Below, piece after piece: positions 32,965 to 50,254 of a stretch of DNA of 64,000 nucleotides; position 1 is the first letter of the stretch; each line of letters opens with the position of its first letter. The notes below the pieces were generated by a model that saw only the letters and a program-made list of their open reading frames with translations, made no database searches and was not told the origin of the DNA. Source of the stretch: Gammaproteobacteria bacterium. Its GTDB lineage: Bacteria > Pseudomonadota > Gammaproteobacteria > CAJXQU01. The translations under genes were made by a program, and so were the position numbers. The stretch is from the NCBI GenBank assembly GCA_045110495.1, contig JBGCGE010000010.1, positions 2,392-66,391 of the forward strand, in the 5' to 3' direction.

Positions 32965-34095
32965 TTAGCCAAACGAATTTGTTTCTCGATGCCAATTTAT
33001 TATATGAGAACCAGTGATATAGGTTGCGTTAATACTGGCTTGTTTTTGTAACTCTAAAGTGTCAGTTGCAATCAGTCCTAAGCTTGCCTGTGAGCCATAA
33101 GAGACGATGAAATATTTTCCATCAGTTGTAGCTGTGATCCCTCGAGGTCTTGGCAAGTTGATGTGCTTTTTAAACTGATTATTTTTCGTATCCCAAAAAC
33201 TAACTATGTCACCTTTTGGTGTTGTAACTGCAAAAGTTTTAGATGTTTCGTGGATCGCTGCACTTAATGTTTCACCTACGTAGCGATTTTTGATCTCTTC
33301 TGGAGCTTGCAGATTAATTATTTCACTTCCCATTTTTCGAAAGCTAACGCCACCAAGATCTGATCCAGGAAGTCCAGAGCGAGGAGCAGAAACTACGCCA
33401 AGATCCTGATTTTTTGAAAGGACTAAATGACCGGCATTAATACGTTGATCTGGCAGTTCTATTTTTTCAATTAACATGCCGCTTTCGACATCAACATAAC
33501 AGACGGAAGGTGAGTCAGTACTGTCTAATGTTCCGCCGCCATTTGTGATGGCTAATAATTTACCGTTATTAAAAAGATGACAGTCGTGAGGACTTTTACC
33601 ATAACTCGGAATTTCGCCAAGAATGTCTAATGATTTTGTATCTCTGATTGAAATTATTCCATCGTGATTATTCAGGTATGATTCCACAGCAAACAATAGT
33701 GATCCATCTTTAGAATAAGATCCATGTCCATAAAAATGACAGCCATTTGTGGGACTCATATAGCGAATGACTTGCTTAGTTTTTATATTTACTTCGCAAG
33801 CACCCGAACCTTTTTTTTGAAAAAGGAATAAGGTATTTTTGGATCGAGGATTAATACTTATACCATGCGCAAAAAAGTTTACCGAAATTTGTTCTGCAAC
33901 TGACTTTTTGAAATCATATAACGCCAAAACATACTTAGTTTTTTTCGTTTTAAGATCAATATACTGGCCACCACCTAAAATTAAATCAGTGCTTTTAGGG
34001 CGGCTTCCCGAAGAACATGACGAACCGAGATAAGCCAACGAAAGAAAAGATGTTTTGCTTAAATTTTTTAAAAATTCTCTTCTGTTAAATGGCAT
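32965..34095 (-). CDS. DUF1513-family Tat-exported beta-propeller (lipo)protein
   Basis: RREFLK Tat motif, FYGHG..S.DG..L, G..PH, A.TNGG. Confidence 0.8.
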   Translation of the reverse strand: MPFNRREFLKNLSKTSFLSLAYLGSSCSSGSRPKSTDLILGGGQYIDLKTKKTKYVLALYDFKKSVAEQISVNFFAHGISINPRSKNTLFLFQKKGSGACEVNIKTKQVIRYMSPTNGCHFYGHGSYSKDGSLLFAVESYLNNHDGIISIRDTKSLDILGEIPSYGKSPHDCHLFNNGKLLAITNGGGTLDSTDSPSVCYVDVESGMLIEKIELPDQRINAGHLVLSKNQDLGVVSAPRSGLPGSDLGGVSFRKMGSEIINLQAPEEIKNRYVGETLSAAIHETSKTFAVTTPKGDIVSFWDTKNNQFKKHINLPRPRGITATTDGKYFIVSYGSQASLGLIATDTLELQKQASINATYITGSHIINWHRETNSFG

Positions 34096-34133
34096 GATAG
34101 TTTATGAAACTTTTGAAATTTATTTTTAAATAT

Positions 34134-34565
34134 TTAGATTTTTTGTTTCTTCCAGATCTCAGTTCGTCCAAATAATGAGAAACCAATATAACCTCTAATC
34201 TCAAGAGTGTTGCTATCAGTAAGTTTCATTTTGCAATTATACTTTTTGCCATTATTTGGATCGTAAATCCAACCATCGAGCCAGTAATTTGGATGTTGAT
34301 AAGTAAAGTCACCCAGCACAACAACGTTTAATAATGAGCGGGTTTTTAAAGTTGGATCTGGGTTGTTGACATCCAACCTGTCTTTACCGTCAGTACTGCC
34401 AACAATTGCACCGCGGTAGAGGTTTTGTGTTTTAGTAATTTCTATCAGACCATCACCAGCTTGATTTACCCAGACACCGAGGATATCTGCCTCTGTTACA
34501 GCGCGAGCGGCGCTCATTGTGAGCTGGCCCAGGATGATGAGTGAAATATAAATTAGCCGCTTCAT
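34134..34565 (-). CDS. DUF2147 secreted protein
   Basis: Signal peptide, D.NNPD, G.IYDP.NGK.Y, L.IRGYIG...FGRT..W. Confidence 0.9.
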   Translation of the reverse strand: MKRLIYISLIILGQLTMSAARAVTEADILGVWVNQAGDGLIEITKTQNLYRGAIVGSTDGKDRLDVNNPDPTLKTRSLLNVVVLGDFTYQHPNYWLDGWIYDPNNGKKYNCKMKLTDSNTLEIRGYIGFSLFGRTEIWKKQKI

Positions 34566-34620
34566 TTATTATGCTCTCTGATTTTTTGTTTAAGGCCAAT
34601 GGAAATATGCCTGGTTTGTT

Positions 34621-34643
34621 ATCACAGATAAAAAATCTGTGAT
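34621..34643. promoter_or_regulatory. Perfect palindrome upstream of the DUF2147 gene (candidate operator)
   Basis: ATCACAGAT-AAAAA-ATCTGTGAT. Confidence 0.4.
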
Positions 34644-34787
34644 GTTTGTACTTGGAATCATAACTTACATAATGTCTCGAACATATAGTTCAATACATTT
34701 ATCCATTTTAAAAACTGATCGGTATCTAAGATTATTACTAATGTGAGTGGATTACGTCTTAAAAGAGAAAATGAAAGAATCGAGCAC

Positions 34788-34823
34788 AAAAAAGCCTCAT
34801 CTGATTTATTCCAGATGAGGCTT
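34788..34823 (-). terminator. Intrinsic terminator of the PEP-CTERM-like gene
   Basis: AAGCCTCATCTG-N8-CAGATGAGGCTT, followed by a T-run on the minus strand. Confidence 0.85.
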
Positions 34824-34847
34824 AGTGTTTATTAATTAATCAGTGGT

Positions 34848-35633
34848 TTATTTGTCAGATTGTTTTTTAAATCGACGTCTTGCTACCATACCGAACAGGC
34901 CGATACTTGCTAAAGCTAAAGTGCCTGACTCTGAAACGTTAACTGGCGGTACGGGTGGTGTCAGAGGTGGGTTAGAAACCTGTGCCCTTAGGCCATTCAT
35001 TCGGCTGTCATAAGTACTCCAACCAGAATTACTATACCCAAAAGAAGCAAGTGATCCGTTTGCGTTATAGGTTGGGTCGCCATCTGTTTTTACCGCATAA
35101 AGCCATATGCCCATAGTTTCACCAAAACCCAGGCCAGTCCAATCTCCACCTGCAAAATTGTTAATCTTGCTTGCATCAATATCAAAGCTGAAGGTGGTTT
35201 GATTAGCAATAGATGTATCCGTTTCGAATTTACCACCGAAAGATTCAATGAAAGCACTGTTAGCGTAACTATTTTTACCAGCGTATTTATAAGCTGAAAT
35301 GTTGCCACTCTTTGAATCAGCGTAGAGCATGGCAAAATTACTACCAGAATTTCCACTTCCTAAAACGAGAGTCATACCGTTTGCAAGCGCACTTCCGTTA
35401 GAATTCACGGTATATTTCATCGAAAACGCATTGGTATCTGAATCAAAGCTTGTATTCACAGCTGAGATATCCCCAGCATTTTTATGTAGTACTAGTGGTG
35501 TAGTGTTTTTTGTAACAGCAGAATTTTTATCGTCATAAGTATATGTCGTGGCTTGTGCTGTTGAAGCAAGTGTAAGACCAGTTAATACAGAAACGGTAAA
35601 AATAGTTTTTGTGAAAGATTTTGAAAGATTCAT
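34848..35633 (-). CDS. Secreted Ser/Thr/Asn-rich protein with PEP-CTERM-like sorting signal
   Basis: Signal peptide (AQA), Pro-rich linker, VSESGT-hydrophobic helix-RRR. Confidence 0.8.
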   Translation of the reverse strand: MNLSKSFTKTIFTVSVLTGLTLASTAQATTYTYDDKNSAVTKNTTPLVLHKNAGDISAVNTSFDSDTNAFSMKYTVNSNGSALANGMTLVLGSGNSGSNFAMLYADSKSGNISAYKYAGKNSYANSAFIESFGGKFETDTSIANQTTFSFDIDASKINNFAGGDWTGLGFGETMGIWLYAVKTDGDPTYNANGSLASFGYSNSGWSTYDSRMNGLRAQVSNPPLTPPVPPVNVSESGTLALASIGLFGMVARRRFKKQSDK

Positions 35634-35637
35634 TTTT

Positions 35638-35688
35638 TACTCCTCCTTGAGTAATGAAATGTGTATAGCTTTGTAGTGCATCCTTGCA
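35638..35688 (-). promoter_or_regulatory. Two CsrA/RsmA-type GGA-loop hairpins in the 5' leader
   Basis: Minus strand TGCA-AGGA-TGCA (35688-35677) and TACTC-AAGGAG-GAGTA (35653-35638) covering the SD. Confidence 0.55.
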
Positions 35689-35944
35689 ACAGGGTCAAAG
35701 CATAAACGAAATATTCGCTTGGTCAACTAATTGACAGTAATGCTTTGTTAAGCCTTGTCACATAAAATTAATGACGCTATTAAAAGAAAGATCAGGTTTA
35801 GTGAGCTTGTTACTTATATCGGCTTGCTTAGACCCTATCTTTACGTCAATTTTAGATGACTGGGTATCACTTTAGATAGAAAAACTGTATCGATTAGCTA
35901 TTTCGTAGCTCATTTAGGTACCACAGATAGTTCAATTTAATTTT

Positions 35945-37627
35945 CTAAGACATATATTGATCTTTATGAGCTGCTAGTTGTTGTTGAATAAGTTCACCAT
36001 CGATTTTTAATAATGTTAAAACTTGCCTGCTGATCAACATACTTGATTCAAGCATTTCGAGGAAAACATGATTTGCACCAAGAGAAAGTAGTTCCTGAAA
36101 ATTTGCATTTTCTGAGCAACGAACAATGACCGGTATATCAGGATTATTCTTACGGATTTTAGAAATGGTAGTTTTTGCATGCTCCAGCGATTTAAAAGTG
36201 AGAACAGCAAGGCGTGCCTCAGTTAAGTGACAACGCATCAGGAGGTCTATATTAGTACAATCGCCATACTGTAGATTTTTCCCTAGCTTCAGACTTTGAT
36301 TGACTTGTTCGATATTATTATCGATAGCGATGTAAGGGATCTCGTTCTGCTCGAGTAATTCGGCAATTGTCATTCCAACCCGACCAAACCCACCAATAAT
36401 GACGTGATCTGAATGATGTTTGTCACTCAGTTTAATTGTATGACCCTCCTTTTTAATGGTGAGAAATCTAAAGAATTTATCTGTTAACAGATCAGCATTG
36501 CGTATCAAAACTGGACTTAATGCCATGGTGAAAATGGCAATTAGAATAATGAATGAACTCTGATCTAATGGGATAACACCATTTAAATAAGCTAGTGACA
36601 TTAGCGCTAGACAAAACTCACCAGCTTGCGCTAACGTTAATCCGACTCTAATTGCATCCTCATCACCGAATCCCATCGCTTTTACAACTAGCGTGACCAC
36701 GACAGTTTTGATCAAAATTAACAATAGCGTAAACAAAATGATCCGTGGCCAATATTCGATCAGCAAACCAAGATCCAGACTCATACCAATCGTGACAAAA
36801 AATAAGCCAAGTAAAATATCTTTAAAAGGGCGAATATCATTTTCTATTTGGTATTTAAATGAACCTTCTCCCAGCATCATACCGGTAACAAACCCACCCA
36901 ATGCCATAGAAAGATGAAAGCTATGTGTTAACCAGGCGGCTAATAAAACGATCACTAATGTACTGAGAACAAAAATTTCTTCTGATTTACTCAAGGCAAC
37001 TTCTTTGTAAATCAGCGGCAATACCCATTTGCCTAAAACCATCAAAATACTGAACAAGACAACCCCACGCAAAATGGCGGAAGCTAACTCCATGGCCAAT
37101 GAGTTTTCACCTTGGTTTGCAAGCACAGGAACCATGATCAAAAAGATTACCGCTACCAGGTCCTGAAATAACAGAACGCCTATAGCGAGTTTACCGTGTT
37201 GATTGTGGAGCTGGTGGGTATTTACTAACTCTCTGGTCACAATTGCCGTTGAAGAAAGTGCAAGAGCTCCAGCAATAAGAACCGCAGAAGAAGGTGTACT
37301 TCCCCAAAAATAGACTGTTGTACCAAAAACGATTGTACAGGCTAATACCTGGACGCCACCGACACCAAAAACCAGAAACTTTAGAGACAACATTTTCGGC
37401 AGACTGAATTCCAGACCCAGCGAAAACAATAAAAAAACAACACCGAACTCAGCGATCAAAGAAAAGCTTTCAGGTGTAGAGACAAAATTAAATGCTTGAG
37501 GCCCAATAGCTGCGCCAACCGCCATATAGGCAATAATCGTCGACATTTTTAGCCGTTGGAAAAAAATTGCAGCCAGCAGTGAAAATGTCATTATGACAAT
37601 GAGTTGTTGGAAAAAACCTTCAGTCAT
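35945..37627 (-). CDS. CPA2/Kef-type cation:proton antiporter with TrkA-N domain
   Basis: AEFGVVFLLFSLGLE, LSSTAIV, LLFQD, GFGRVG. Confidence 0.92.
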   Translation of the reverse strand: MTEGFFQQLIVIMTFSLLAAIFFQRLKMSTIIAYMAVGAAIGPQAFNFVSTPESFSLIAEFGVVFLLFSLGLEFSLPKMLSLKFLVFGVGGVQVLACTIVFGTTVYFWGSTPSSAVLIAGALALSSTAIVTRELVNTHQLHNQHGKLAIGVLLFQDLVAVIFLIMVPVLANQGENSLAMELASAILRGVVLFSILMVLGKWVLPLIYKEVALSKSEEIFVLSTLVIVLLAAWLTHSFHLSMALGGFVTGMMLGEGSFKYQIENDIRPFKDILLGLFFVTIGMSLDLGLLIEYWPRIILFTLLLILIKTVVVTLVVKAMGFGDEDAIRVGLTLAQAGEFCLALMSLAYLNGVIPLDQSSFIILIAIFTMALSPVLIRNADLLTDKFFRFLTIKKEGHTIKLSDKHHSDHVIIGGFGRVGMTIAELLEQNEIPYIAIDNNIEQVNQSLKLGKNLQYGDCTNIDLLMRCHLTEARLAVLTFKSLEHAKTTISKIRKNNPDIPVIVRCSENANFQELLSLGANHVFLEMLESSMLISRQVLTLLKIDGELIQQQLAAHKDQYMS

Positions 37628-37771
37628 AAGTTTTCAAATTCCATAATCTTGGAATCAAATTTGTAGTCCTAGTCTGTTCTCATGAAGTGCCAAGCCTACC
37701 TGAAAAGATCATTGTATAAATGCAAATTGAATGTACTTAAGAATAAGGATAGCGCCTCAGATATTACCCCT

Positions 37772-38392
37772 TTATTTAAGCCATTCCAAAGCAAGCCCCG
37801 GTGTATCCTTCAAGTTATGTGGCGACTGTTTATTCTGCATAAACTGAATCCATTGCTGCCAGAGTTTCGCGATCGAAATACTTTTCGATAGTCTTTCAGT
37901 TAAGATAATCTCATCACCCGCTTGAACTATCCCTTCTTGAACGACTCGATAATACCAACCAGTAATGTGATGTTGCATGAGAAGGTTAACCAAATGACCA
38001 TTGCCATATTTGTGATTGACTTTCCAACATGGGCGTCGGGGTTGAGAGACCTGGATGATCGCGGAACCAACAGAAAAAGTATCACCAATATGAACATTCT
38101 TTTCTGAAAAATTCTCGGACGAAAAATTTTCACCAATCGTACCCGGTAGAAACTTCTCGGCTAGATGTGGGAGAGCTTCCTTAAGTAGTTCATAATTTTC
38201 CACAGCGTAATGATGTACTGCTTTATCCAGGCCACCATGAACTTGTTGATCAGCCTGAAAGTCACCTTCCAAACCCAGATCTGTTAATCGTATTGGATCC
38301 GATACCGGAGTTTTGAAAATACCAGTGGGTACATCGTCTGGCCCTATGACATTTGTTTCTGCGATGAGAATTTTATTGATGATGGATTGCAT
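37772..38392 (-). CDS. MOSC domain protein (YiiM-like)
   Basis: GD.QAD...HGG.DKA, GENF, SQPR.PCWK, TGWYYRV. Confidence 0.9.
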   Translation of the reverse strand: MQSIINKILIAETNVIGPDDVPTGIFKTPVSDPIRLTDLGLEGDFQADQQVHGGLDKAVHHYAVENYELLKEALPHLAEKFLPGTIGENFSSENFSEKNVHIGDTFSVGSAIIQVSQPRRPCWKVNHKYGNGHLVNLLMQHHITGWYYRVVQEGIVQAGDEIILTERLSKSISIAKLWQQWIQFMQNKQSPHNLKDTPGLALEWLK

Positions 38393-38512
38393 TATCTGAT
38401 CCAGATATAAAGATATGTAATATTGTAACTAACCCTTTAAGCTAAAGATATTACAGGTAAAAAGATCAGTAATGAATCAAATAGATGCACTGCAAAATTA
38501 CATAAAGTAGAG

Positions 38513-39028
38513 TCAATTTTTTACAGCTGTAATTTGAGGATTCCCCAAAAAAATGTGAGGGCATTTAGTGGTTACTAACTTTACTTTTTGAATATCTATT
38601 GTAATTTGACCCAGTTTGGTTAATGCATTCAAGCCGATCAAATTACGTGTAGCTCCATTCACGACAGCGATTTCAACTGGACCCACATCACATCCATTTG
38701 CTAAGACGAGAGAAGGAAGAATATAAGTCGGAATTGTTTTCATACTGCCGCTAGCCATTCTCGCCATAATTTTACCATTAGAAATTGGCTTCTGAAATTT
38801 ACTAATTTGTTTGAAAAGTTTTTTCCCTATCATCACCATCGAAGCTCCTGTATCGAATAGAAATTCTGCTTCGAGAGAAGGTGTTATGTTTGCAGAAAGA
38901 GTGTACGTGCCAGACGAAGTCGCATGCAACTCAACATCATATTGGAGTGTTGGCTCTGCAAAAACATTACTTGCTAATAATAGCATTAGTAAAGTGGTGA
39001 GTATTTGTTTCAGTATGGTAATTTTCAT
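38513..39028 (-). CDS. Secreted retropepsin-like (clan AA) aspartyl protease
   Basis: Signal peptide (VFA), FLFDTGAS, LIGLNAL. Confidence 0.88.
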   Translation of the reverse strand: MKITILKQILTTLLMLLLASNVFAEPTLQYDVELHATSSGTYTLSANITPSLEAEFLFDTGASMVMIGKKLFKQISKFQKPISNGKIMARMASGSMKTIPTYILPSLVLANGCDVGPVEIAVVNGATRNLIGLNALTKLGQITIDIQKVKLVTTKCPHIFLGNPQITAVKN

Positions 39029-39058
39029 AGTAGCTGATGAGTAATTTACAGTGAACAA

Positions 39059-39074
39059 TGCAGTTATCAGGCCA
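39059..39074 (-). promoter_or_regulatory. sigma54 (-24/-12) promoter facing the protease gene
   Basis: Minus strand TGGCCTGATAACTGCA (GG-N10-GC). Confidence 0.65.
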
Positions 39075-39137
39075 ACTAACAGGTGCGATAAATATCGTTA
39101 TAAAACAATAGCATATAAATTATTATCTTGGATTGCA

Positions 39138-39189
39138 CGCACTCTAATAGTGCATTGTATTTAATAACGCACTAATGAAGTGCGTTATT
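39138..39189. promoter_or_regulatory. Tandem NtrC-type enhancer sites
   Basis: Two GCAC-N7-GTGC sites (39139-39153, 39169-39183), 30 bp apart; the second lies within an 11-bp perfect palindrome. Confidence 0.7.
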
Positions 39190-39258
39190 GATTGAAAATT
39201 AGAATGTTTTTGGTATTATTTAATCTACAGATAATTAAAACTAATCAGGAGAGGAATA

Positions 39259-39609
39259 ATGAAAATTATAAAAGTGTTCGTTGCAATTCTCAGTCTGGGT
39301 TATTTTATCCCAGCGAGTGCGGATAATAATCAGGAAATGACTCGCGTATGGCAAACAGATATTTCTGGCAAGCCACCATATAAGCGCAAGATGGTACAAG
39401 TCCCTGTCGTGGATTTAGCTAGCTTTGAAACAAAGAAAACCAAGGCGGTCAATAGTGCAGATTTTAGCGGAAAACCTCCGTACAAACGCAACAAGGAAAC
39501 AGTTCGTATAGTCGATCTGGCTCAATTTGAAGCGATAAACGAGAAAGTTGAATCTGCCACCAGCAAGAAAAAATTTGTTCCAGCACCGCGGCGGATGAAA
39601 CAAAGGTAA
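39259..39609 (+). CDS. Small secreted protein with a duplicated D.SGKPPYKR motif
   Basis: Signal peptide (ASA), GGAGAGG RBS, two ~31-aa repeats. Confidence 0.8.
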   Translation: MKIIKVFVAILSLGYFIPASADNNQEMTRVWQTDISGKPPYKRKMVQVPVVDLASFETKKTKAVNSADFSGKPPYKRNKETVRIVDLAQFEAINEKVESATSKKKFVPAPRRMKQR

Positions 39610-39627
39610 CTTTTTTTGAAAAAGGTG

Positions 39628-39674
39628 ATGGGGTCAGGTGCAATAACGCATTAGAGATAAGCACCTGATCCCAT
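39628..39674. repeat. GGGGTCAG-type inverted repeat (hairpin)
   Basis: ATGGGGTCAGGTGC-N19-GCACCTGATCCCAT, 13/14 complementary. Confidence 0.7.
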
Positions 39675-39708
39675 ACAGAACGTACGGGGGGGGGTATTCG
39701 GGTTTTTT

Positions 39709-40842
39709 TTAACCACCTAACACCGATAGTAATATACCAGCAGCAACAGCAGACCCAATGACACCGGCCAAATTTGGCCCAATTGCATGCATCAATAAGA
39801 AGTTATGTGGATTAGCTTCAAGTCCTACTTTATTAGCAACACGGGCAGCCATTGGTACAGCTGAAACACCTGCGGCTCCAATCAAAGGATTAATTGGGTT
39901 TTTAGAAAGTTTGTTCAGCAATTTAGCCATTAACACGCCGGTTGCTGTGCCTATACAAAATGCCACTGCGCCAAGTGCTAAAATGCCGAGTGTCTCAACA
40001 TTCAAAAATTTGTCAGCTGACATTTTTGAACCAACCGCTAAGCCCAAGAAAATCGTAACGATATTCATGAGTTCGTTTTGCGCCGCGTTGCTTAAACGTT
40101 CAACTACACCACTGACTTTAAGAATGTTACCAAAGCACAGCATACCGATGAGTGGCAATGATGCTGGGATGAACAATGCGGTGACGGCCAATACAATAAA
40201 TGGAAACAATAATTGTTCAAGCTTGCTGACTTCGCGCAATTGCTCCATTTTAATTTCACGCTCTTTTTGGGTAGTTAGGGCGCGCATGATTGGTGGTTGA
40301 ATGATCGGCACAAGTGCCATATATGAATATGCGGCTACTGCGATGGCGCCGAGCAACTCGGGTGCTAGTCGACTAGCAAGAAAAATAGCAGTAGGACCAT
40401 CTGCGCCACCAATAATGGCAATAGCCGCAGCGTCTTGCATAGTGAAATCAAAGCCTGGTATAGCATTGAGTGCAATTGCGCCAATCAGGGTCGCAAAAAT
40501 ACCCACTTGTGCTGCTGCACCAAGTAACAATGTTCTGGGGTTGGCTATCAGAGCACTAAAATCAGTCATTGCACCAACGCCCATGAAAATCAATAGTGGA
40601 AATACACCGGTTTCGATACCGACTTTATAAATCAGATAGAGCAAACCGTTTATTTCGGCCATGCCAGCAATGGGGATATTGCTCAAGATGGTACCAAAAC
40701 CAATGGGCAACAATAATAAGGGTTCAAACTTTCTCTTAATAGCGAGGTAAATCAGGACAACACCAACAACAACCATAATTAGTTGTTGCCATTCCCAGTT
40801 AACGAAACCGGATTGTCCCCAGAGTTTTAAAATACCATCCAT
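39709..40842 (-). CDS. oadB: Na+-translocating oxaloacetate decarboxylase beta subunit
   Basis: [39 protein letters not shown]. Confidence 0.96.
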
Positions 40843-40914
40843 ATTTATTCTCGTGTAATGTTTTCTGTTCCTTAACGTGAGTTCTGGATACTGATTAGTT
40901 TGGCGTAAAAAGGA

Positions 40915-42696
40915 TTAACCTAGTGTGATGATGGTTTGACCTGCGGTCACGACATCACCTTCTTTAACATGAATTTGAGCAACTAAACCATTACTGGAAG
41001 AACGTATTTCAGTCTCCATCTTCATGGCTTCCATAATGATGATGACATCACCTTCTTGTACTTGCTGGTTAGACTCAACGCAGACTTTAAAGATGTTGCC
41101 ACTCAAAGGTGCAGTGATCGGTACGCTTTCTCCGGTGCTAACAGTAGCCACAGCGAGTGCTTCGGAAGCTACATCAGGATTCATCACAGGTGCTCCTGCA
41201 ACACCGACCTGGATGTCTGCACCACCATCAGTGACAACAGCATTGAATTGCCTGCCATCAACTTCAACGGTGTATGTCTCTGGGCCATCTGAGATAGTGT
41301 CATTTTTCGCCACAGGTACCGGTTCAAATGCCGATGGATCGTTGCGATGTTTCAAGAACTTTAGACCAATCTGTTGAAATAATGCATAGATCAACGCATC
41401 ATCTTCAGCATTTTCGGCAAGGTCAAAATCTTCATCTTTGGATAGTTGTCGGATTTCAGCAATCATTTTGTCTATTTCAGGATCAATAGTGTCTGCTGGA
41501 CGATGTGTAATTACTTCGCCACCATCTTCTATAACGCGAGCCTGCAAGTCTTTGTCGACCGGAGCTGGTGTTGCGCCATACTCACCTAAAAGTACACCAC
41601 GAGTCTCTTTTGTGATGTTTTTATAGCGTTCACCTAAGACAACATTTAGTACTGCCTGGGTGCCGACAATTTGTGAGGTAGGTGTAACCAATGGCAAATA
41701 GCCCAAGTCTGCACGTACACGAGGCACTTCTAAAAGAACCTCAGCAAATTTATCACCAAAACCTTGTTCCTTGAGCTGGTTTTCCATATTGGTGAGCATA
41801 CCGCCAGGTACTTGAGCATTAAGAATTCGAGCATCAACACCTTTAAGTTCGCCTTCAAACTTCCAATATTTTTTGCGCACTTCGCGGAAATGATCGGCAA
41901 TCGGCTCAAACGCCATCAAGTCTAAGCCCGTATCACGTTTGCTGCCTTGCATAATCGAGACAATGGTTTCTGTAGGCGTGTGACCGTAGGTCAAACTCAT
42001 TGTTGAAATAGACGTATCAATAATATCAATGCCCGCATCAATCACTTTCATAGTGGTTGCTGTACTGAGGCCCGTTGTTGCATGTGCATGCAAGTTCAGT
42101 GGTATGTCACAAACTTTTTTGATCCCTTTAACCAATTTTTCAGCTACGTAGGGTTGTAATAATCCGGCCATGTCTTTGATGCAAATTGAATCACAACCAA
42201 GATCTTCAAGTTGTTTGGCCATATTGATCCAGCCATTTAAAGAGTGCACGTCGCTGATGGTATATGACATCGTCCCTTGTGCATGCTTGCCGTTTTCTTT
42301 GACAGCTTTGATCGCGGTTTCAAGGTTACGCACATCATTCATGGCGTCAAAGATACGAAACACGTCCATACCATTGGTTGTGGCTCGCTCAACGAATTTA
42401 TACACAACATCGTCTGCATAATGTCGATAGCCAAGTAAATTCTGACCACGCAACAACATCATTTGTGGTGTTTTCTTAAAAACACTGCTTAGTTCACGTA
42501 GGCGAACCCAGGGGTCTTCACCGAGGAAACGAATACAGGAATCAAATGTTGCGCCACCCCATGTTTCTAAAGCCCAATAGCCGATATCATCAAGTTGTTC
42601 AGCAATAGGCAGCATATCGTCTAAACGTAGACGAGTTGCAAAAAGAGATTGGTGCGCATCGCGCAAGACGACATCGTTTAGGAATAGTTTGCTCAT
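40915..42696 (-). CDS. oadA: Oxaloacetate decarboxylase alpha subunit
   Basis: LRDAHQSL, WGGATFD, KDMAG, biotinylation motif EAMKM. Confidence 0.96.
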   Translation of the reverse strand: MSKLFLNDVVLRDAHQSLFATRLRLDDMLPIAEQLDDIGYWALETWGGATFDSCIRFLGEDPWVRLRELSSVFKKTPQMMLLRGQNLLGYRHYADDVVYKFVERATTNGMDVFRIFDAMNDVRNLETAIKAVKENGKHAQGTMSYTISDVHSLNGWINMAKQLEDLGCDSICIKDMAGLLQPYVAEKLVKGIKKVCDIPLNLHAHATTGLSTATTMKVIDAGIDIIDTSISTMSLTYGHTPTETIVSIMQGSKRDTGLDLMAFEPIADHFREVRKKYWKFEGELKGVDARILNAQVPGGMLTNMENQLKEQGFGDKFAEVLLEVPRVRADLGYLPLVTPTSQIVGTQAVLNVVLGERYKNITKETRGVLLGEYGATPAPVDKDLQARVIEDGGEVITHRPADTIDPEIDKMIAEIRQLSKDEDFDLAENAEDDALIYALFQQIGLKFLKHRNDPSAFEPVPVAKNDTISDGPETYTVEVDGRQFNAVVTDGGADIQVGVAGAPVMNPDVASEALAVATVSTGESVPITAPLSGNIFKVCVESNQQVQEGDVIIIMEAMKMETEIRSSSNGLVAQIHVKEGDVVTAGQTIITLG

Positions 42697-42774
42697 GATA
42701 ATTTAACGGTTTTATCTCGCTAGGTTTTTAACTACAACTAATGGGAGGCATGTCAGGAAATTTGCCATGATGTT

Positions 42775-43044
42775 TTAAAGGCCTTTAGCCTGTCGGTGTG
42801 CTTGCACCGCTGCAATAACAATGGACTTTTCTTGCTCAGAAATACTGGATTGACTAGCTGAGGCTTTTCTTGATGGTGCTGTAATACCGATATCTGGAAC
42901 AGCATGAACTGGATTCTTTTCAAATTTTAAACAAGCAGCCGACAAAAGACTGATACAAGTAATAAGCAATGACAACAGTAAAAATACTGTCCCCATACCC
43001 AAACCAAATAAAGTCGCAGCTTGTGTTAACTGATCTATTAGCAT
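42775..43044 (-). CDS. oadG: Oxaloacetate decarboxylase gamma subunit
   Basis: GMGTVF.LL TM helix, Pro/Ala linker, IAAVQAH; upstream of oadA. Confidence 0.88.
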   Translation of the reverse strand: MLIDQLTQAATLFGLGMGTVFLLLSLLITCISLLSAACLKFEKNPVHAVPDIGITAPSRKASASQSSISEQEKSIVIAAVQAHRQAKGL

Positions 43045-43308
43045 GTGGTTCTCGGTGATATTTGAAAAAAAATCGTATATCAGTAAATTATTATTATTTT
43101 AAAGACCAATGAAAATATGTTTATAGAAAACAGTCATTCTGACTCATTTTCATAATAGATAATACTTTTTTATGCTTCTTATTCTGTAACTTAACTTAAA
43201 TAATGAAAATAAGAGCATAACACGGATGATCTGCATCATGCACAACGACACTTGCAAGATCATTTGCTCTACTAGCAATTGAAGAGCTTTTATCTATTTA
43301 ATCTCTCT

Positions 43309-43569
43309 TCATTTGCATTCAACAATAAGCGACCTGTCCGCGGCAATAAGGAAGCCATGAGATTCATTTTTTTGATCAATAATGCTATAGCCTCGAACGC
43401 CACACATCTCACCAGCTTTTTGATAGCAATGAGCAATCGTAACAGCTGTACAATTAATGGCATAACCTGATTTTCCATTGGGAGAAGTTATAGGTGTTGT
43501 GATGGCACAGCCCGTCATAGTTACGGTCGTTAACAGACAAAAAAATACCAGTATTTTAGTTTTGATCAT
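43309..43569 (-). CDS. Small Cys-rich lipoprotein
   Basis: Lipobox MTGC; P.GK.GYAINC...CYQKAGEMC. Confidence 0.75.
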   Translation of the reverse strand: MIKTKILVFFCLLTTVTMTGCAITTPITSPNGKSGYAINCTAVTIAHCYQKAGEMCGVRGYSIIDQKNESHGFLIAADRSLIVECK

Positions 43570-43724
43570 AAGCCTTAACCTGCTTTTAGAAAATGTGTAT
43601 TTATTGTTTAGAAAATTTTAAAAGAGAAAATTTATGATTATTGTCTTTCAGCCATTAGTTATTTATATTTAAAATTCATAAATATTTGTAACTGCTGAAC
43701 CTCTTTTTTTATTACCAACACTAG

Positions 43725-44366
43725 TCAACCAATGGTGTTCTTTTTTTGCTTACCAACACACCATTCACCGAAAATAATGTTAATTATCCAGGCTGCTGTC
43801 ATTAGAATATCCCGCGTTACTCCACTTGGTTCTCCAACAGTTAACAACCATGGAATTACGATCAATACTTGCGTTCCAGCTCCCTGACCTAAAGCATAAG
43901 CACGAATCATCCATGCTCGATGTTGTGCAATTCTCATATCTAAAACTGTGGCTAATCCAAGTAAGATGTAAGCCGTCATTAAGGAGCCAACAAAAATACG
44001 AATAAAATAAAGATGGTCGCCCTGTAGATGCTCAGGAAAGTGATAATAGTGAGTCATCCATAAACCTGAAATTGCCGATACAATACCTGCAATAACCAGT
44101 AAACGACCCATTACCCGATGCCATTGAGGAAAGTTTTTTCTTATACTCGAGAGAAATTGAAAAGCACCCAAAAAGCAAAAAATGATAGAGCTAATAATGT
44201 GAAATATTGCGGGTATTGGTAAAAATTTTATTCTGGGATTTTCAGGCAAAAATTCTAAACTAGTGTTGAGATCTATCAACCGAAACACTCCTCCAATACA
44301 AGGCACAAAGCTTAATAAAAGCAACCCAATTAAGAGATACCATTCTGACTTTTTCAGGAATAACAT
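43725..44366 (-). CDS. DUF2306 membrane protein
   Basis: H.....LGAFQF, HR.MGR, HRAWMIRAYA. Confidence 0.85.
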   Translation of the reverse strand: MLFLKKSEWYLLIGLLLLSFVPCIGGVFRLIDLNTSLEFLPENPRIKFLPIPAIFHIISSIIFCFLGAFQFLSSIRKNFPQWHRVMGRLLVIAGIVSAISGLWMTHYYHFPEHLQGDHLYFIRIFVGSLMTAYILLGLATVLDMRIAQHRAWMIRAYALGQGAGTQVLIVIPWLLTVGEPSGVTRDILMTAAWIINIIFGEWCVGKQKKNTIG

Positions 44367-44472
44367 GCCGAATTCGATCCAATTATTTTTGATCTGATCA
44401 TTATCTTTCTACACCTGTTAGTTGCTTCTTGAAGGATTAAAAAAATATCAACGTAGATACTTTTTTACTTTC

Positions 44473-44516
44473 TTGACACCAGTATATTGAGACGCATAGG
44501 ATGTTCAATAACATCC
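44473..44516 (+). promoter_or_regulatory. sigma70 promoter overlapped by a palindromic operator upstream of the tetR gene
   Basis: TTGACA-N18-TAGGAT; GGATGTT-CAAT-AACATCC at 44499-44516. Confidence 0.65.
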
Positions 44517-44540
44517 AACTAAAACAGGAATATTAAGTGA

Positions 44541-45095
44541 ATGAGATATCCGCCAAATCAAAAAAGTGACTCTCGAAAAAAAATAATTAAGGCCGCAAGA
44601 TCAGTTTTTGCCAATGTAGGCTTTGATAAAGGAACCATCGATCAAATCATGTCAGAAGCAGGTATGACACGTGGTGGATTCAATAAACACTTTAGTAATA
44701 AAACAGAGCTACTAATTGAAGTTGTTCGTGAAGGACAAGTGGATTTACCAGAAGATATTTCGTGCCATGTTGGGGATATTCTTCGTCGTTATCTTGATGA
44801 TACACATATCGAAGACAAGGCCAACGCATGTCCACTTTTCACATTTCCAAATGACGTTGCACACCATGGAGACGATGTAAAAACAGCATATGAAGATGTG
44901 GCGAAATCTATTGTCGATGTCCTGACTCTAGCTCAGCCAGAAAAGAATAAAGAACTCGCAATGGCTTTGATGGCAATGTGCGTGGGTTGTATGGTCGTTC
45001 TGAATAGCTGTGCTGACGCCAATTTCAAACAGTCATTACGTAAAGCGACGTTAATGCAAATTTCGGAACTGACAGGAATTAAACTTTCCATGTGA
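44541..45095 (+). CDS. TetR/AcrR family regulator
   Basis: II.AA...F...GF...TI..IM.EAGMTRGGF..HF..K. Confidence 0.93.
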   Translation: MRYPPNQKSDSRKKIIKAARSVFANVGFDKGTIDQIMSEAGMTRGGFNKHFSNKTELLIEVVREGQVDLPEDISCHVGDILRRYLDDTHIEDKANACPLFTFPNDVAHHGDDVKTAYEDVAKSIVDVLTLAQPEKNKELAMALMAMCVGCMVVLNSCADANFKQSLRKATLMQISELTGIKLSM

Positions 45096-45103
45096 GCTTA
45101 ATT

Positions 45104-45122
45104 AAAGGGGTCTGACCCCTTT
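45104..45122. repeat. AAAGGGGTC-T-GACCCCTTT palindrome
   Basis: Perfect 9-bp arms around a 1-nt centre. Confidence 0.8.
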
Positions 45123-45157
45123 TAAGTTCTAGTTTTCATATTGCTTTCCATTTTGAA

Positions 45158-45256
45158 ACATAACGCTTACATAAGCGGAAAATTATAGTTGGCTATAATG
45201 TTTGAGGAACGAAAAACAGCCAACTGTAATTTTTCCGTTTGATGTTCTTGTTATGT
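45158..45256 (-). mobile_element. Integron attC site (99 bp)
   Basis: Minus strand ACATAAC-aagaacatcaaacgg...ccgcttatgtaagc-GTTATGT with a long internal inverted repeat; begins right after the stop codon of the upstream gene. Confidence 0.9.
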
Positions 45257-46198
45257 TCAATTTCTATTAGGCTTAATGTACCCTGAAATTAGGTAACAAT
45301 AAACTTCAATTAAATCATCAGCTAAATCATAAGAATCATCTGCCATAAGAGGAGCATGAGGAAAGATACCAAAGCGAGATTCAGGATGAAATGACATAAT
45401 TCGACTTTCGTAATACTCACTAAAATATTTCTCGGAAGCTTCGGAACTAAACACTTTACCTATGAATTCAGCAGCATCTTTTGAACTTGGGTTCTTAATA
45501 CCAAGCTGATGTAGCCTTTTTAACACCAGTCGAAAAGACGCTTCAAGAGATATAAATGTAGTATTGATTGATTCTTCTAGAAAATTAGAGAGAGCACCAA
45601 GCATTATGCTTCTAAACAATGTTGAAACCGCACGAACCATTAAATGATCTTTGGTATCGAAAGCTTCGTACAGGTGTTTTTGTAATTTAAGGTCATACCC
45701 ACTTTCACTTAAACCGTATTCAATGTCACTTTGAACCGTTGGCAGTTCAATACCTCTCATATTCTTATATTGATTTTCAACGGTAAGTTTATTTCCTCTA
45801 AAGTTACGTGCCATTGATGGCTCTTCTAGTACTTTTATTAGAGCAGAAGCAACACATTCTAAATATTCAATATTAATAATAGAATTTCCAATATTTACTC
45901 TGTGAGAAATTGAAAATGGAAATAAACGACAATAACCAAAGTCTCGGTCAATACAGAGTAATATTGATGCAAAAAGTTTAACCTCATTCAGAGTAGCCCA
46001 CTCGACCTCTGAGTAATAGTTTTCTATTTCTAATTTCACATCATCTATAGGAGCAATTGAAAAGCAGATCTGGTTACTTATATAAAGAGCAGAATCTTCA
46101 TTGATAATACTATGACTTGGGTACATCCCCATTGGTGACATCATTCTCACAGTATGGCTAGCATTTAAATCACGATACTCTAAAAATGAAATACTCAC
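45257..46198 (-). CDS. Cassette-borne HEPN-like protein (RxxxxH); ORF is open to 46216
   Basis: FISLEAS helix followed by YESRIMSFH; GTG 46198 lies behind AAGGAG. Confidence 0.75.
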   Translation of the reverse strand: MSISFLEYRDLNASHTVRMMSPMGMYPSHSIINEDSALYISNQICFSIAPIDDVKLEIENYYSEVEWATLNEVKLFASILLCIDRDFGYCRLFPFSISHRVNIGNSIINIEYLECVASALIKVLEEPSMARNFRGNKLTVENQYKNMRGIELPTVQSDIEYGLSESGYDLKLQKHLYEAFDTKDHLMVRAVSTLFRSIMLGALSNFLEESINTTFISLEASFRLVLKRLHQLGIKNPSSKDAAEFIGKVFSSEASEKYFSEYYESRIMSFHPESRFGIFPHAPLMADDSYDLADDLIEVYCYLISGYIKPNRN

Positions 46199-46212
46199 GG
46201 ACACTCCTTTGA

Positions 46213-46272
46213 ACATAACGCCTTTAGCACCGGGCGCGCGTTAGCGCGTCCGAGTGCCTAAACTTGTTAGGC
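46213..46272 (-). mobile_element. Integron attC site (60 bp)
   Basis: Minus strand GCCTAAC-aagtttaggcactcggacgcgc..gcgcgcccggtgctaaaggc-GTTATGT; the upstream gene's TAA lies inside GCCTAAC. Confidence 0.9.
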
Positions 46273-47430
46273 TGCACTTGGTTCGGATTTAAGGCGAGTG
46301 AGTATCTCTTGATTTTTTTGATACGTATTTTTCATTGACTCAACCAGCTTGGCTTTACCTAGCCCCTCGTCACTCATGTATCTGCTGGATATACTGCCTA
46401 GAACACCGAGCCACCACGTATTTGTGAGGGCCGCAATTCCTCCACCCACCAAATAGGCGAAGTATGTTTTTCCACTACGGTCTCCAGCAGCCTTTGCTTT
46501 TTCATATAGAGTCAGACTCTCTTCGCGATATGACGTAAATGCGATGAAAGCGAGCGTAAAAACAGGAGGCGCTAAACTAAAGTCTATATCGGCCGCTGAA
46601 GCGCCAGCCTCAACCTGCTCAGCTAGTTCAATGTTGGATATTTCACCGTTTTCAATATTTTCGCTAACGCCGGACATTACAAGATGCGAATAGACTTCAT
46701 CCGTAGTAACAACATCAATAGAAGGATATTTTGCCAGCGCCTCTTGAACGTAAGCCACAGAGTCGGTTGCCTTTGCTTGTAGAAGCTGAACAATTTCTTC
46801 ATTCGGGCCTACAACCTGAATATCCCAACCAGGCTGTGTAGACAACATGGCAAGATCGGCAGTGTAGCCATCTGGCAGGTTCTCATTCAGATAATCAACG
46901 TATTTTTGCTCAAATAGCTTTCCTTTCACGCCGCTGTGGAAGCCGGCCGTGGCCTCTTCGCCATCCAGAGAAATTAGCTTCTCGAGGAATGACGAGTCTT
47001 CTGCCATCTTTGGATATGCCGCCGCATAGGCTGCTTCGATTTCTGGCGCAACCGAAGTTGCTACAAGAAGCGTAGCTAGCGACTCACCCCCTACGAAGAC
47101 TGAGTCAGCAAACTTCTTGTTCCTAAGCAACTCACGATACAGGGCCCCTTGAGCTTCTACCCGATGTTCTAAATCCGCCAGCTTCTCCTTTGAGTAAACT
47201 GACTGGATGTAAAGACCTTTAGCATGCTCTTGAACTGAATCACTACCTTCGCGAATATACTCTGTCGCAATGTTTTTAGCTCGCTCGGTATAACCAGATG
47301 CCTGTTCAGTCCAATCGTCTTTATTTTCATCGATGTGATCTTTTACCTCTTTGGCAATATCAGCTGACTTTTCACCCAAACCAGCCGATATCGCTTTGGC
47401 TTTTTCCCATGCGGACCTAAATTTACTCAT
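46267..47430 (-). CDS. Cassette-borne protein with a PD-(D/E)xK-like core and C-terminal hydrophobic helices
   Basis: KGKLFE...PGWD...LQAK; hydrophobic segments PPVFTLAFIAF and FAYLVGGGIAALTNTWWLGVLG. Confidence 0.75.
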   Translation of the reverse strand: MSKFRSAWEKAKAISAGLGEKSADIAKEVKDHIDENKDDWTEQASGYTERAKNIATEYIREGSDSVQEHAKGLYIQSVYSKEKLADLEHRVEAQGALYRELLRNKKFADSVFVGGESLATLLVATSVAPEIEAAYAAAYPKMAEDSSFLEKLISLDGEEATAGFHSGVKGKLFEQKYVDYLNENLPDGYTADLAMLSTQPGWDIQVVGPNEEIVQLLQAKATDSVAYVQEALAKYPSIDVVTTDEVYSHLVMSGVSENIENGEISNIELAEQVEAGASAADIDFSLAPPVFTLAFIAFTSYREESLTLYEKAKAAGDRSGKTYFAYLVGGGIAALTNTWWLGVLGSISSRYMSDEGLGKAKLVESMKNTYQKNQEILTRLKSEPSAA

Positions 47431-47444
47431 AACATCTCCGTGTG

Positions 47445-47506
47445 GCCTAACAGTCTGTTATACGGGAATGCTTCCCGCATAACATTATTATGAGGAACGT
47501 TTCCCT
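47445..47506 (-). mobile_element. attI-like site with no adjacent intI
   Basis: Minus strand GTATAAC-AGACT-GTTAGGC simple site, preceded by a degenerate direct repeat ending in GTTATGC. Confidence 0.65.
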
Positions 47507-47674
47507 GAAGTTAGAATTTGTGAAAGTCACGATCCTGTAACCATCTGATTTATATTACCTTTTAAATTTTCCATTATTCTTTTTCCTAAAACAAGGGAAC
47601 GATTCGTGGATAATGTAGCTTACTTTATCTGGTGCGTCAGTAGATTTTTCAACCAAACGTGACTTTGTTATATA

Positions 47675-50254
47675 TCATAACCACCCCTTCAACTCATACA
47701 ACTTCTCCAACGCTTCTTTCGGACTCAACTCATCTGGATTGAGATCATTGATCTTATCTGCAAGTTCAAGCATAGCTGTAGAAGGCAGTAGTTCAAGTTG
47801 TTCGTTTTGATCTACAGGATGAATATTAGTTTCACGACTCTCTAATTGTTTTAATCGAATACGTGCTTGTTTGATTACGTCTTTTGGAACGCCAGCGAGT
47901 TGGGCGACTTGTAATCCATAGCTGCGATTCGCGGGGCCATCTTTTACCGTGTGCATGAAAACTAATTTATCTTTGTGTTCGATCGCATCAAGTCGCACAT
48001 TGATCGCGGTAGGATGCTTTTCTGGAATTGCAGTCATTTCAAAATAATGCGTGGCGAACAATGTCCATGCACCGATATTTTCGAGTAAATGGATCGCGCT
48101 TGCCCACGCCAATGACAGCCCATCGAAGGTGCTGGTGCCGCGTCCGATTTCGTCCATTAAAACTAACGAGTTTTGTGTTGCATTATTAAGAATATTCGCT
48201 GTTTCGATCATTTCTACCATGAAGGTTGAACGGCCAGAAGCTAAATCATCGCTGGCGCCAATGCGGGTAAAAATACGATCAATATTTCCTATGCTGGCAG
48301 ATTTTGCCGGAACAAAACTACCGCAGTGTGCGAGCAAAACGATCAGCGCGATTTGTCGCATGTAGGTGGATTTTCCACCCATGTTGGGTCCGGTGATGAT
48401 CAACATTTTCCGATCTTCATTCATGATCAAATCATTTGGAATAAAACTTTCTTCTTGAATTTTTTCAACCACAGGATGACGACCGGCTTCAATATTGATC
48501 TGGTTCGTCTGACTTAGATCTGGTTGAGCGAAATCTAATGTCACCGCACGTTCGGCAAAACTTCCGAGTACATCGAGTTCTGCGATTGCCGCTCCGGTTG
48601 ATTGAAGATCTGGCGTGTGTTCGGTTAATTGATCGAGCAGATCGGCATAAAGTGCTTTTTCCAGCTTCAGAGCTTTTTCACCCGCGCTGAGAACCTTGTC
48701 TTCATATTCTTTTAATTCAGGCGTGATGAAACGTTCGGTGGCTTTGAGTGTTTGTCGACGATGATAATGAGTTGGAACGTCATTGCTTTGCAAACGGCTG
48801 ATCTCAATGTAATAGCCGTGAACACGATTGTAGCCAACTTTCAGCGTTTGTATGCCGGTGCTTTCGCGTTCGCGGATCTCAATTTGATCAAGATAGTCGC
48901 TGGCATTTTTGCTCAGTTTTCGTAGTTCATCCAACTCGGCGTGATAGCCTTCAGCGATCATTCCGCCATCACGAATTAAAGCTGGTGGCATTTCGATAAT
49001 CGCATTGGTGAGTAGAGAAAGCATGTCGGGAAATTGATTAATCTGATCAGAAAGTTGTTGCAGTCTTGGGCTATCCAGATCGGCCAGTTGTTCTTTAATA
49101 TCAGGCAACGCGCCTATCGAAGAACGAAGTTGAGCGAGATCTCGTGGCCGAGCAGATTTAAGTGCAATACGTGTGGTGATGCGTTCCATATCGCCAATGG
49201 CGCGCAGTGTTTCTTGTAGATCAGAATAATGTTGATTTTCGATCAAGGTTGCTACAGCGTGATGGCGAAATTTGATTGCTGCATGATCGCGCAAAGGCGC
49301 TTGCAACCAGCGGCATAACATACGACTGCCCATGCCGGTTACCGCAGAGTCAATCAAATGTGCAAGACTATGGCGGCGTTCGCCCGACAAGCTGTTGAGA
49401 ATTTCCAGGTTACGACGGCTAGCAGCATCAATCGTGATCGTGTCGCTCAAAGTTTCCAGTTTTAATTCGGTCAGGTGCGGCAGCGAAGTACGTTGTGTTT
49501 CACGCGTGTATTGCAAAAGACATCCGGCGGCTGAGATGGTTGAGGGTAATTGATCACAACCGTAACCTTTTAAATCCGTTACTCCGAAATGTTCTTTAAG
49601 CTGACGCGTGCTGCTATCGAGATCAAAATACCACGGCGACATAGTTGAAATCGATTTATGATTTTTTAACGCCGCTAGCAATGGCGAATCTTCACTGATC
49701 AAAATTTCAGCGGGTTGTAATCTTTCCAGTTCTGCGATCAATTCGTCGTGTTTGTTGTCTTTATTTGTGTTGCGATCAGAGTGCTGAGAAATCTCCATCA
49801 CATGAAAGCGCCCACCGCTGAGATCTAACCAGGCCAGGCCAATTTTTTGATCAAGCTCATGGATGGCTAATAGCAGATTATCCTGTCGTTCTTTTAATAA
49901 GGCTTCGTCGGTGACGGTTCCCGGCGTAAGAATGCGGGTGATTTTACGTTCGACCGGACCTTTGCTCGTTGCAGGATCTCCAACTTGATCACAAATGACA
50001 ATTGACTCACCCATGTCGACTAATTTAGCCAGATAATTTTCTGACGCATGCATCGGCATGCCCGCCATTGGAATAGGCTCACCAGCCGAGTTTCCACGTT
50101 TGGTTAATGCCAGCCCTAACAGTTCATTTGCGCGTCGTGCATCTTCAAAAAAGAATTCATAAAAATCCCCCATTTGAAAAAACAACAACTTGTCAGGATA
50201 CTCAGCTTTAAAGCCAAGATACTGCTGCATTGCTGGGGTATGTTCAGTCGCCAT
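47675..50254 (-). CDS. mutS: DNA mismatch repair protein MutS
   Basis: [36 protein letters not shown]. Confidence 0.99.

Follow-up and report, generated by a model that had tools for sequence, protein, structure and literature searches.

How do two gene cassettes come to stand directly behind mutS when no integrase gene lies beside them? The question is raised by a 64,000-nt stretch of a Gammaproteobacteria bacterium genome (GenBank assembly GCA_045110495.1, contig JBGCGE010000010.1; this whole stretch is the window of the text below), where positions 45158-47506 had been described from the letters as an integron array without integrase. Such arrays are known as CALIN, clusters of attC sites lacking an integron-integrase (Cury et al. 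2016, PMC4889954). The answer proposed here, which is very probably the right one, is that the locus is the remnant of a chromosomal integron: its attI region has been kept, together with two intact single-gene cassettes with foldable attC sites, and all of intI but its first few codons has been deleted.

The genome under study (G000) is a metagenome bin of 2.8 Mb with 39.9% GC, whose smallest contig is 2837 bp long; the contig that carries the array measures 153 kb. It was compared with six genus-mates (G001-G006), Cn standing for the contigs within each genome. One of these, G005, has an integron of its own and serves as the main reference. The features of the locus are the following, attC scores being those of the covariance model R1 described below.

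47675-50254, minus strand: mutS, complete, with five MutS Pfam domains, reading towards the array
47667-47685, no strand: junction of mutS and the putative intI stub, where homology switches between the mutS and the attI/intI loci of G005
47445-47674, minus strand: putative attI region (intI-proximal leader and attI core), homologous to the DNA that abuts G005 intI
46219-47450, minus strand: cassette 1, 1232 bp, with open reading frame ORF387 (47430-46267) and attC1
46213-46272, minus strand: attC1, 60 nt, 53.0 bits, E 1.1e-10
45164-46218, minus strand: cassette 2, 1055 bp, with ORF319 and attC2
45158-45256, minus strand: attC2, 99 nt, 63.5 bits, E 2.7e-13
45102-45125, no strand: terminator-like perfect palindrome with which the array closes (end of the convergent TetR gene: 45095)

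The motifs that frame the cassettes on the minus strand are GTTAGGC (47451-47445), GCCTAAC (46272-46266), GTTATGT (46219-46213), ACATAAC (45256-45250) and GTTATGT (45164-45158), and every motif and ORF boundary of the preliminary description is present at its place, exact to the base. Its further remarks on the layout also hold. One stop codon lies inside an R'' box (TAA of ORF387, 46269-46267) and the other abuts one (TGA of ORF319, 45259-45257). The two genes differ in base composition, with 46.3% GC for ORF387 and 34.1% for ORF319 (genome 39.9%). The gap of about 220 bp without intI measures 223 bp from the end of mutS to GTTAGGC, with no integrase-like ORF in between. A GGAG stands 6 nt ahead of the ATG of ORF387. 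As first delimited, ORF319 (46216-45257, minus strand) begins with an ATG at 46216 that falls within R' of attC1; a GTG at 46198, seven bases past an AGGAG, looks the likelier start of this second gene and would give a protein of 313 amino acids (46198-45257), which is the version listed in the protein collection (P0122).

The first step of the answer is whether the two hairpins are attC sites. R1 was used as a stand-in for the attC covariance model of IntegronFinder. It was trained on 24 attC sites of the G005 array only, nothing from the window being used, and its consensus structure of 17 pairs was written by hand from the column pair counts of a MAFFT alignment of these sites, on which RNAalifold predicted zero pairs. 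In a self-test all 24 training sites were recovered, at 36.2-69.1 bits, and three G005 sites outside the training set scored 49.2, 34.9 and 20.5 bits. When both strands of all 64 kb were searched with filters off, reporting at E<=10, R1 gave 11 matches. Two are significant, both at the coordinates of the preliminary description and both scoring inside the range of the training sites; the third best has an E value of 2.5. In addition, attC2 is 73% like one attC of the G005 array. The two sites lie on the same strand, 957 bp apart, and a CALIN is delimited by at least two sites within 4 kb.

The folding of the bottom strands, suggested earlier as a check, led to the same result. Both sites form hairpins with paired R boxes, an open short spacer and extrahelical bases on the 3' arm. 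The bottom strand of attC1 reaches -17.7 kcal/mol (z -3.5), with two single-base bulges, A and C, on the 3' arm; that of attC2 reaches -21.0 kcal/mol (z -6.8), with two single-base bulges, G and T, on the same arm. None of 200 shuffles folded as well as either of them, all being folded as single-stranded DNA. The R'' boxes GCCTAAC and ACATAAC fit RYYYAAC. R' is GTTATGT at both sites and thus carries a T at position 5, not the R of GTTRRRY; R' boxes of the GTTAT type are common in the G005 training sites.

A second trait ties the boxes to each other. In both cassettes the leading 7-mer is the exact complement of the cassette's own R'' (GTTAGGC with GCCTAAC, GTTATGT with ACATAAC), as had been noticed at first reading; such a match is what a crossover at G|TT leaves behind. 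The same rule is followed by 23 of the 25 consecutive site pairs of the G005 array, read by eye from the site lists, and by further cassettes of G000 on contigs C40, C69 and C5. Since the rule is symmetric, it cannot by itself give the orientation of the array, which is supplied by attI and by the direction of the ORFs.

Evidence that a cassette has moved as a unit comes from another genus. The DNA of cassette 2 is 84.2% identical over 1063 bp to a sequence of Oceanisphaera ostreae (NZ_JBHTJS010000041.1; locus L056, 2980-4042), and this homology covers window positions 46219-45161 only, from the G of the upstream R' through the R' of attC2. It begins and ends at the predicted crossover points, so that cassette 2 appears to have moved as one discrete piece. 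For the ORF319 product, too, the closest relative is the O. ostreae protein, with 84% identity, and the O. ostreae copy of the cassette is followed by an attC of 61.1 bits. More generally, an attC-like match lies within about 70 bp of the gene end at three of six genomic loci of the ORF319 family. Taken with R1 and the folding, this cassette-bounded homology shows the attC sites to be genuine and bears out the earlier statement that the locus carries the signature of integrase-inserted cassettes.

Some side observations were made on the O. ostreae locus itself (L056; NZ_JBHTJS010000041.1, 57772-64682). A second cassette comes after the shared one, with an attC of 66.8 bits. The shared cassette is preceded by a stretch, ATAATGTTATGT, which resembles the attI box of G000. 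No intI was found within 3 kb upstream of it.

Neither ORF387 nor ORF319 was found in the 40 relatives searched, the six genus-mates included, and no attC match occurs in 58,204 bases of mutS flank from five genus-mates. The comparison of the mutS 3' flank, proposed at the outset, thus gives no sign of attC in relatives; the contrary outcome envisaged then, with neither site scored by an attC model or with both ORFs being core genes at this position, was not observed. Neither ORF had a match in 72,556 plasmid records. One competing explanation is that the hairpins are ordinary terminators or repetitive extragenic palindromic (REP)-type repeats and the two ORFs a native operon. Both hairpins do follow stop codons, and a true palindromic repeat lies close by at 45102-45125. 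Such an operon would nevertheless have to account for the scores against a model made from a real array, for leading sites complementary to R'', for a cassette-bounded homology to another genus, for two ORFs not found in relatives and for a locus where no Rfam family was found; this explanation is hardly credible. No tRNA was found at the locus.

The next step is how the cassettes came to lie behind mutS. The spacer of about 225 bp between mutS and cassette 1 had been passed over in the preliminary description; from its sequence, it is an attI region with a stub of the 5' end of intI. In the attI core, the boxes GTTATGC (47483-47477) and GTATAAC (47463-47457) are followed by a 5-nt spacer and then by the R box GTTAGGC (47451-47445); the crossover is placed after G47451. 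The region is 78% identical to G005:C3:2174734-2174960, which directly abuts intI in G005. Within G000 itself, window positions 47448-47641 recur at C40:5892-6084 and C24:1148-991, and in part at the end of contig C69. Identity between these copies is 90-95% over the last 61 bp and 78-86% over the preceding 92 bp, and drops to 9-34% past the crossover. Three G000 copies and G005 lose their similarity at one and the same column, G|TTA, after which each G000 copy continues into a different cassette. The cassettes are thus joined at the G|TT of the attI R box, where attI recombination and IntI binding are predicted.

At the other end of the spacer, homology to the G005 attI/intI locus spans 47452-47677, and homology to the G005 mutS locus stops at 47678. 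The former enters the first codons of intI, the G005 start codon being aligned with an ATA at about 47670-47672 on the plus strand. In a complete integron, intI adjoins attI and diverges from it; here only a stub of a few codons (47670-47685) stands in that place. The C-terminus of MutS reads ..WL* in the window and ..(W/S)LG* in G005 and G006, and is thus one codon shorter. The parental sequences have a few bases in common at the junction, and the window leaves the mutS of its relatives right after GTTA. As read from these alignments, the junction falls on the mutS stop codon and intI has been deleted here down to the stub. In the proposed course of events, the breakpoint of this deletion would thus be the mutS stop codon itself, with an intI that would have read away from attI. 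The deletion may have come about by illegitimate recombination at microhomology, or an integrase may have made it at a secondary site.

An attI region and an intI stub between mutS and the cassettes argue for a decapitated integron, not for cassettes dropped at a secondary site. The latter explanation, in which an integrase acting in trans would have put the cassettes at the 3' end of mutS and there would never have been an integron here, deserves mention because integrases can insert cassettes outside att sites (10.1101/2022.09.11.507474) and because such insertion is listed among the origins of CALIN by Cury et al. (PMC4889954). Moreover, the 3' end of mutS in G005 and G006 contains GTTAGGG, and the divergence of the window right after GTTA would suit it. 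A simple cassette insertion would not, however, bring with it some 225 bp homologous to the intI-proximal DNA of G005 and the start of intI, which makes this course of events very unlikely. More improbable still is a misassembly of mutS and the array at a repeat. The attI element is indeed repeated in the genome, and its three other copies lie at or near contig ends. However, the copies are only about 85% identical overall, the junction is embedded in the 153-kb contig with unique sequence on both sides, and the point of joining coincides with a stop codon that mutS can use. For the position at gene 3' ends, an element of the Xer/dif type or Tn7 type was also considered and dropped, given the attI homology and the lack of room for transposon ends.

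The array behind mutS is not alone in this genome. R1, run on the whole of G000, gave scores for 150 of 324 candidates, suspect contigs being searched again with filters off, and at least four further attI-plus-cassette loci without intI were found, on C40, C24, C69 and C5. At C40:5892-6480 (L066), a copy of attI comes after a WD40-repeat gene, which itself stands after the 3' end of rapA; the cassette has the leading site GTTAAGT, R'' ACTTAAC and an attC of 29.2 bits, and is followed by the start of a next cassette before the contig ends about 280 bp later. At C24:1-1250 (L067), attI stands right after a Na+/alanine symporter gene, and its cassette has no recognisable attC (only a remnant, ATCTAAC...GTTACAG), so it was treated as decayed. 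At C69:9400-9872 (L065), the contig starts inside the attI core; the joining point of the cassette is the upstream GTTATGC box instead of the R box, R'' reads GCATAAC, and the palindromic repeat described below truncates the attC. The product of this cassette combines a zinc ribbon with a superinfection-immunity domain (PF14373, E 1.6e-17). The attI core at C5:13700-15100 (L062) is of another kind and shares 93% identity over 44 bp with the attI of G001; it is followed by a cassette of the GTTATGT/ACATAAC pair with an attC of 31.1 bits and by a second small cassette; the preceding unannotated ORF ends at about 13639. Among the attI pads of G000, three (those behind mutS, the Na+/alanine symporter gene and the WD40 gene) follow, at a distance of 0-60 bp, the 3' end of a gene that is conserved in the genus and is read towards the cassettes; a fourth, on C5, lies about 340 bp past the unannotated ORF. 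The WD40 and symporter genes are present in all five genus-mates searched, with neither attI nor attC behind them.

Is the integrase then missing from the organism, or only from this locus? Detection relied on the TIGR02249 profile with its cut-off and on tblastn with four IntI proteins of the genus. In the genome-wide search that had been recommended, no match over the cut-off was found in the G000 assembly (two Xer-like genes fall below it), and all six genus-mates had one. With tblastn, G000 returned only the same two XerC/D-like genes, at 27-33% identity. Logan contigs from three sequencing runs were also aligned to the attI-intI locus of G005 at 80% likeness. In run X1, one contig of 1245 bp with a depth of 21.8 has matches to three places of that locus, namely the attI core and the 5' and 3' ends of intI, and the offsets on it fit a collinear full-length intI starting in the attI core. 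The middle 607 bases of intI on this contig are unaligned at that likeness, and the middle of G005 intI (L023, 1549-2064) has little or no cover in the aligned runs. The run that best matches this genome is labelled plant metagenome. Identity among the IntI proteins of the genus is no more than 50-66%; because they diverge so far, the 1245-bp contig can be taken as being of the same type as the attI copies of G000. The loss of intI at this locus thus holds. Since the smallest contig of the bin measures 2.8 kb and an intI contig of matching type is present in the run, an integrase acting in trans is possible.

This is where the most substantial competing explanation comes in: the array would not be stranded at all. 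The organism would still have a single intI, lost only from the bin, whose product serves several platforms of attI and cassettes in trans, this one among them. It differs from the proposed remnant only in whether the system is live. The X1 contig, with an intI spacing fit for a full-length gene and about 78% DNA identity to the G005 type, which suits the attI type of G000 when IntI proteins of the genus share only 50-66%, speaks for it, and so do the 2837-bp limit of the bin, the start of contig C69 inside an attI core, and attI cores conserved at 90-95% between copies, as against 78-86% just upstream. On the other side, the sample is a metagenome, so the intI contig is not assignable to this organism; the middle of the gene is unaligned, as said above; and intI decay is frequent in the genus. 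The intI of G005 has an in-frame stop after about 44 codons (L023/L029; G005:C3, about 2174960-2175916), and the R box of its attI has a T in place of the G of G|TT. In G004 both copies are broken (C1:2856236-2857112 and 2272180-2273056), and in G003 a partial copy (C7:103057-103392) accompanies a full-length one. Weighing both sides, service in trans is a serious possibility, if somewhat short of an even chance. As a side observation, G006 carries two complete integrons with identical intI-attI regions.

A bolder extension of the same idea is that of a distributed integron, in which four or five attI pads would depend on one integrase encoded on an unbinned contig, the cassettes would be expressed by read-through of housekeeping transcripts instead of from a Pc promoter, and attI itself would have been spread by the integrase at secondary sites of the GTT type; one such site would be the GTTA of the junction at the mutS stop. 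This extended proposal, its spreading step included, is rather unlikely.

For the decapitated integron, the functioning that can be proposed is simple. An integron integrase acting in trans may still recombine the cassettes on the folded bottom strand, by attC x attC or attI x attC reactions. With no intI, transcription would reach them by read-through from mutS or start at a promoter in the attI leader that escaped recognition. The proteins made would be stand-alone effectors of a toxic or defence type, ORF387 a membrane-anchored protein of the PDC-M72B family and ORF319 an alpha/beta domain fused to an HEPN-like domain, possibly an RNase.

The evidence on the two products is the following. 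ORF387 has 288 relatives at E<=0.001, none of them named, no conserved neighbour at 21 family loci, and no Pfam or NCBIfam family. Its residues 147-274 match the PADLOC candidate PDC-M72B (PDLC04784) with an E value of 5.4e-17, over profile positions 25-143 of 193; no paper mentioning PDC-M72 was found. The NucC effector model gives an E value of 0.013 only. E174, D203, Q218 and K220 are invariant in 33 sequences and are followed by two hydrophobic helices. These residues might correspond to the pattern E...D...(E/Q)xK of PD-(D/E)xK nucleases, which sits on an alpha-beta-beta-beta-alpha-beta core; the structure model is poor, with a predicted local distance difference test (pLDDT) of 58. With this model, Foldseek against the PDB returned nothing at E<=0.001 and VIA-align only rows of the coiled-coil type, with Z at most 7.1; the family profile against PDB sequences gave coiled-coil noise only. 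A lead from the protein atlas, YeeR_C, was rejected, as none of 33 members matches YeeR_C in Pfam.

ORF319 has 51 relatives without a named family, and no Pfam, NCBIfam or PADLOC match was found. Its structure model is of better quality (pLDDT 85.8, predicted template-modelling score 0.86). In VIA-align, residues of about 181-307 superpose on 8xdj_A (Z 10.4, root-mean-square deviation 3.0, 115 aligned), 1jog_A (10.4), 5yep_B (9.2) and 7ae2_A (8.7), and HEPN-type structures make up seven of the eight top rows for this C-terminal region, with a warning from the tool that helical bundles reach such Z values by chance. Foldseek against the PDB returned nothing at E<=0.001, and the profile had 0 matches among PDB sequences. 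HEPN domains are defined by an Rx4-6H motif, and R266-x4-H271 is invariant in 33 aligned sequences of the family. Another atlas lead, MauJ, was discarded on the same ground as above (0 of 33 members match MauJ in Pfam).

From these sequence and model data, a toxin or defence role of the two cassette genes is a reasonable guess, the word defence being drawn only from the PADLOC candidate match of ORF387 and from the HEPN-like fold and Rx4H motif of ORF319. Integron cassettes do encode phage defence (10.1101/2024.07.02.601719, PMC12614218). The preliminary description had seen here a stranded defence array whose integrase was lost or acts in trans: the cassettes with their attC sites and the absence of intI from both locus and assembly stood, the defence role is suggested and no more firmly put than that, and the attI spacer had escaped it.

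Several points weigh against this interpretation. R1 is derived from the genus and structured by hand, and is not the model of IntegronFinder itself. In the ORF387 family an attC-like match is found at only one of 21 genomic loci, a count in which a genus-specific model may miss foreign attC types. G000 being a metagenome bin, intI may be missing from it and yet be present in the organism. From mutS to ORF387, the minus strand showed no sigma-70-like promoter. Concerning the products, ORF387 matches only the middle of its candidate family, has no partner gene and gave uninformative fold searches; the HEPN match of ORF319 is that of a helical bundle whose Z of 10.4 lies where, by the tool's warning, chance can reach, and none of 33 members matches an HEPN Pfam family.

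The surroundings of the array also differ from those in the genus-mates. In G006 and G001, mutS adjoins the orthologue of the thiopurine methyltransferase gene that lies at window positions 29321-30019. The 17.6 kb in between (30020-47674) carry the array along with ordinary genes, among them those for oxaloacetate decarboxylase, a Na+/H+ exchanger, MOSC and TetR, and have no counterpart at the G006 and G001 mutS loci. The TetR gene beside the array was not found in five genus-mates (E<=1e-20), and the distal boundary of the array is therefore not fixable by synteny. The perfect palindrome of 19 bases, terminator-like, that closes the array has nine copies in G000 at up to two mismatches, several of them at the distal ends of cassette loci (window 45102-45125; C4:770; C5:13714; C13:89564 and 90633; C69:5963, 9208 and 9400; C1:244). 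On C24 and C40, a longer common repeat of about 95 bp, with the same starting bases as the palindrome, was seen just before the contig ends. The palindrome and this repeat may be a repeat element or a transposon end.

How does the locus compare with the systems already described? With CALIN it shares two attC sites on one strand, no intI nearby, and cassettes of unknown function in place of resistance genes. It differs in that an attI region and a few intI codons survive, which makes an origin by loss of intI directly readable, and in that several such loci occur within one genome. The locus fits the CALIN definition, with attI retained, and among the CALIN origins listed in PMC4889954, intI loss is the one documented here. 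In that survey, intI pseudogenes lie near only 15 of 279 CALIN, and the search required half of the profile; such a search would overlook an attI region with an intI stub like the present one. CALIN are common and their origin is usually unreadable; here, the retained attI and the stub show an origin by deletion of the integrase. It follows that arrays of this type can keep a complete, conserved attI, and that surveys in which attI is annotated for classes 1-3 only would miss both such an attI and several platforms beside core genes in one genome.

The closest complete counterpart is the sedentary chromosomal integron of G005, with intI-attI and about 27 cassettes. The attI type, the attC families, the cassette grammar and the reading of ORFs away from attI are the same, whereas the array of the window lacks intI, is limited to two cassettes and has mutS where intI would stand.

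Chromosomal integrons with a decayed intI also lie downstream of ilvD in Xanthomonas. The likeness is that of an array fixed beside a housekeeping gene with its integrase inactivated; in contrast, intI has been removed here almost entirely instead of being mutated, and the flanking gene reads into the array.

Like the attG cassettes of Loot et al. (10.1101/2022.09.11.507474), those behind mutS lie outside a complete integron and are possibly expressed from a host promoter. Unlike attG cassettes, they are accompanied by an attI region and thus occupy the classical site.

As for the products, the C-terminal four-helix domain of ORF319 superposes on HEPN/MNT toxins and on HEPN proteins of abortive infection (8xdj, 5yep, 7ae2 and 9bj5, Z 10.4-6.2) and has the invariant Rx4H. 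It differs from HEPN toxins in having no family match at the sequence level and in bearing an additional alpha/beta domain of about 165 residues at the N-terminus, for which no clear match came up in a bare test that included no search with this domain by itself, and from HEPN/MNT pairs in that no MNT-type partner is present in its cassette. Two widespread unnamed protein families thereby become candidates for phage-defence or toxin testing, that of ORF387 as a PADLOC candidate and that of ORF319 as HEPN-like and recurrent in cassettes.

Taken as a whole, the element is of a type already known, of which the locus behind mutS is a well-documented further example. What is less ordinary is the presence, in a 2.8-Mb genome, of four or five attI platforms without intI beside core genes, possibly attended by an integrase in trans.

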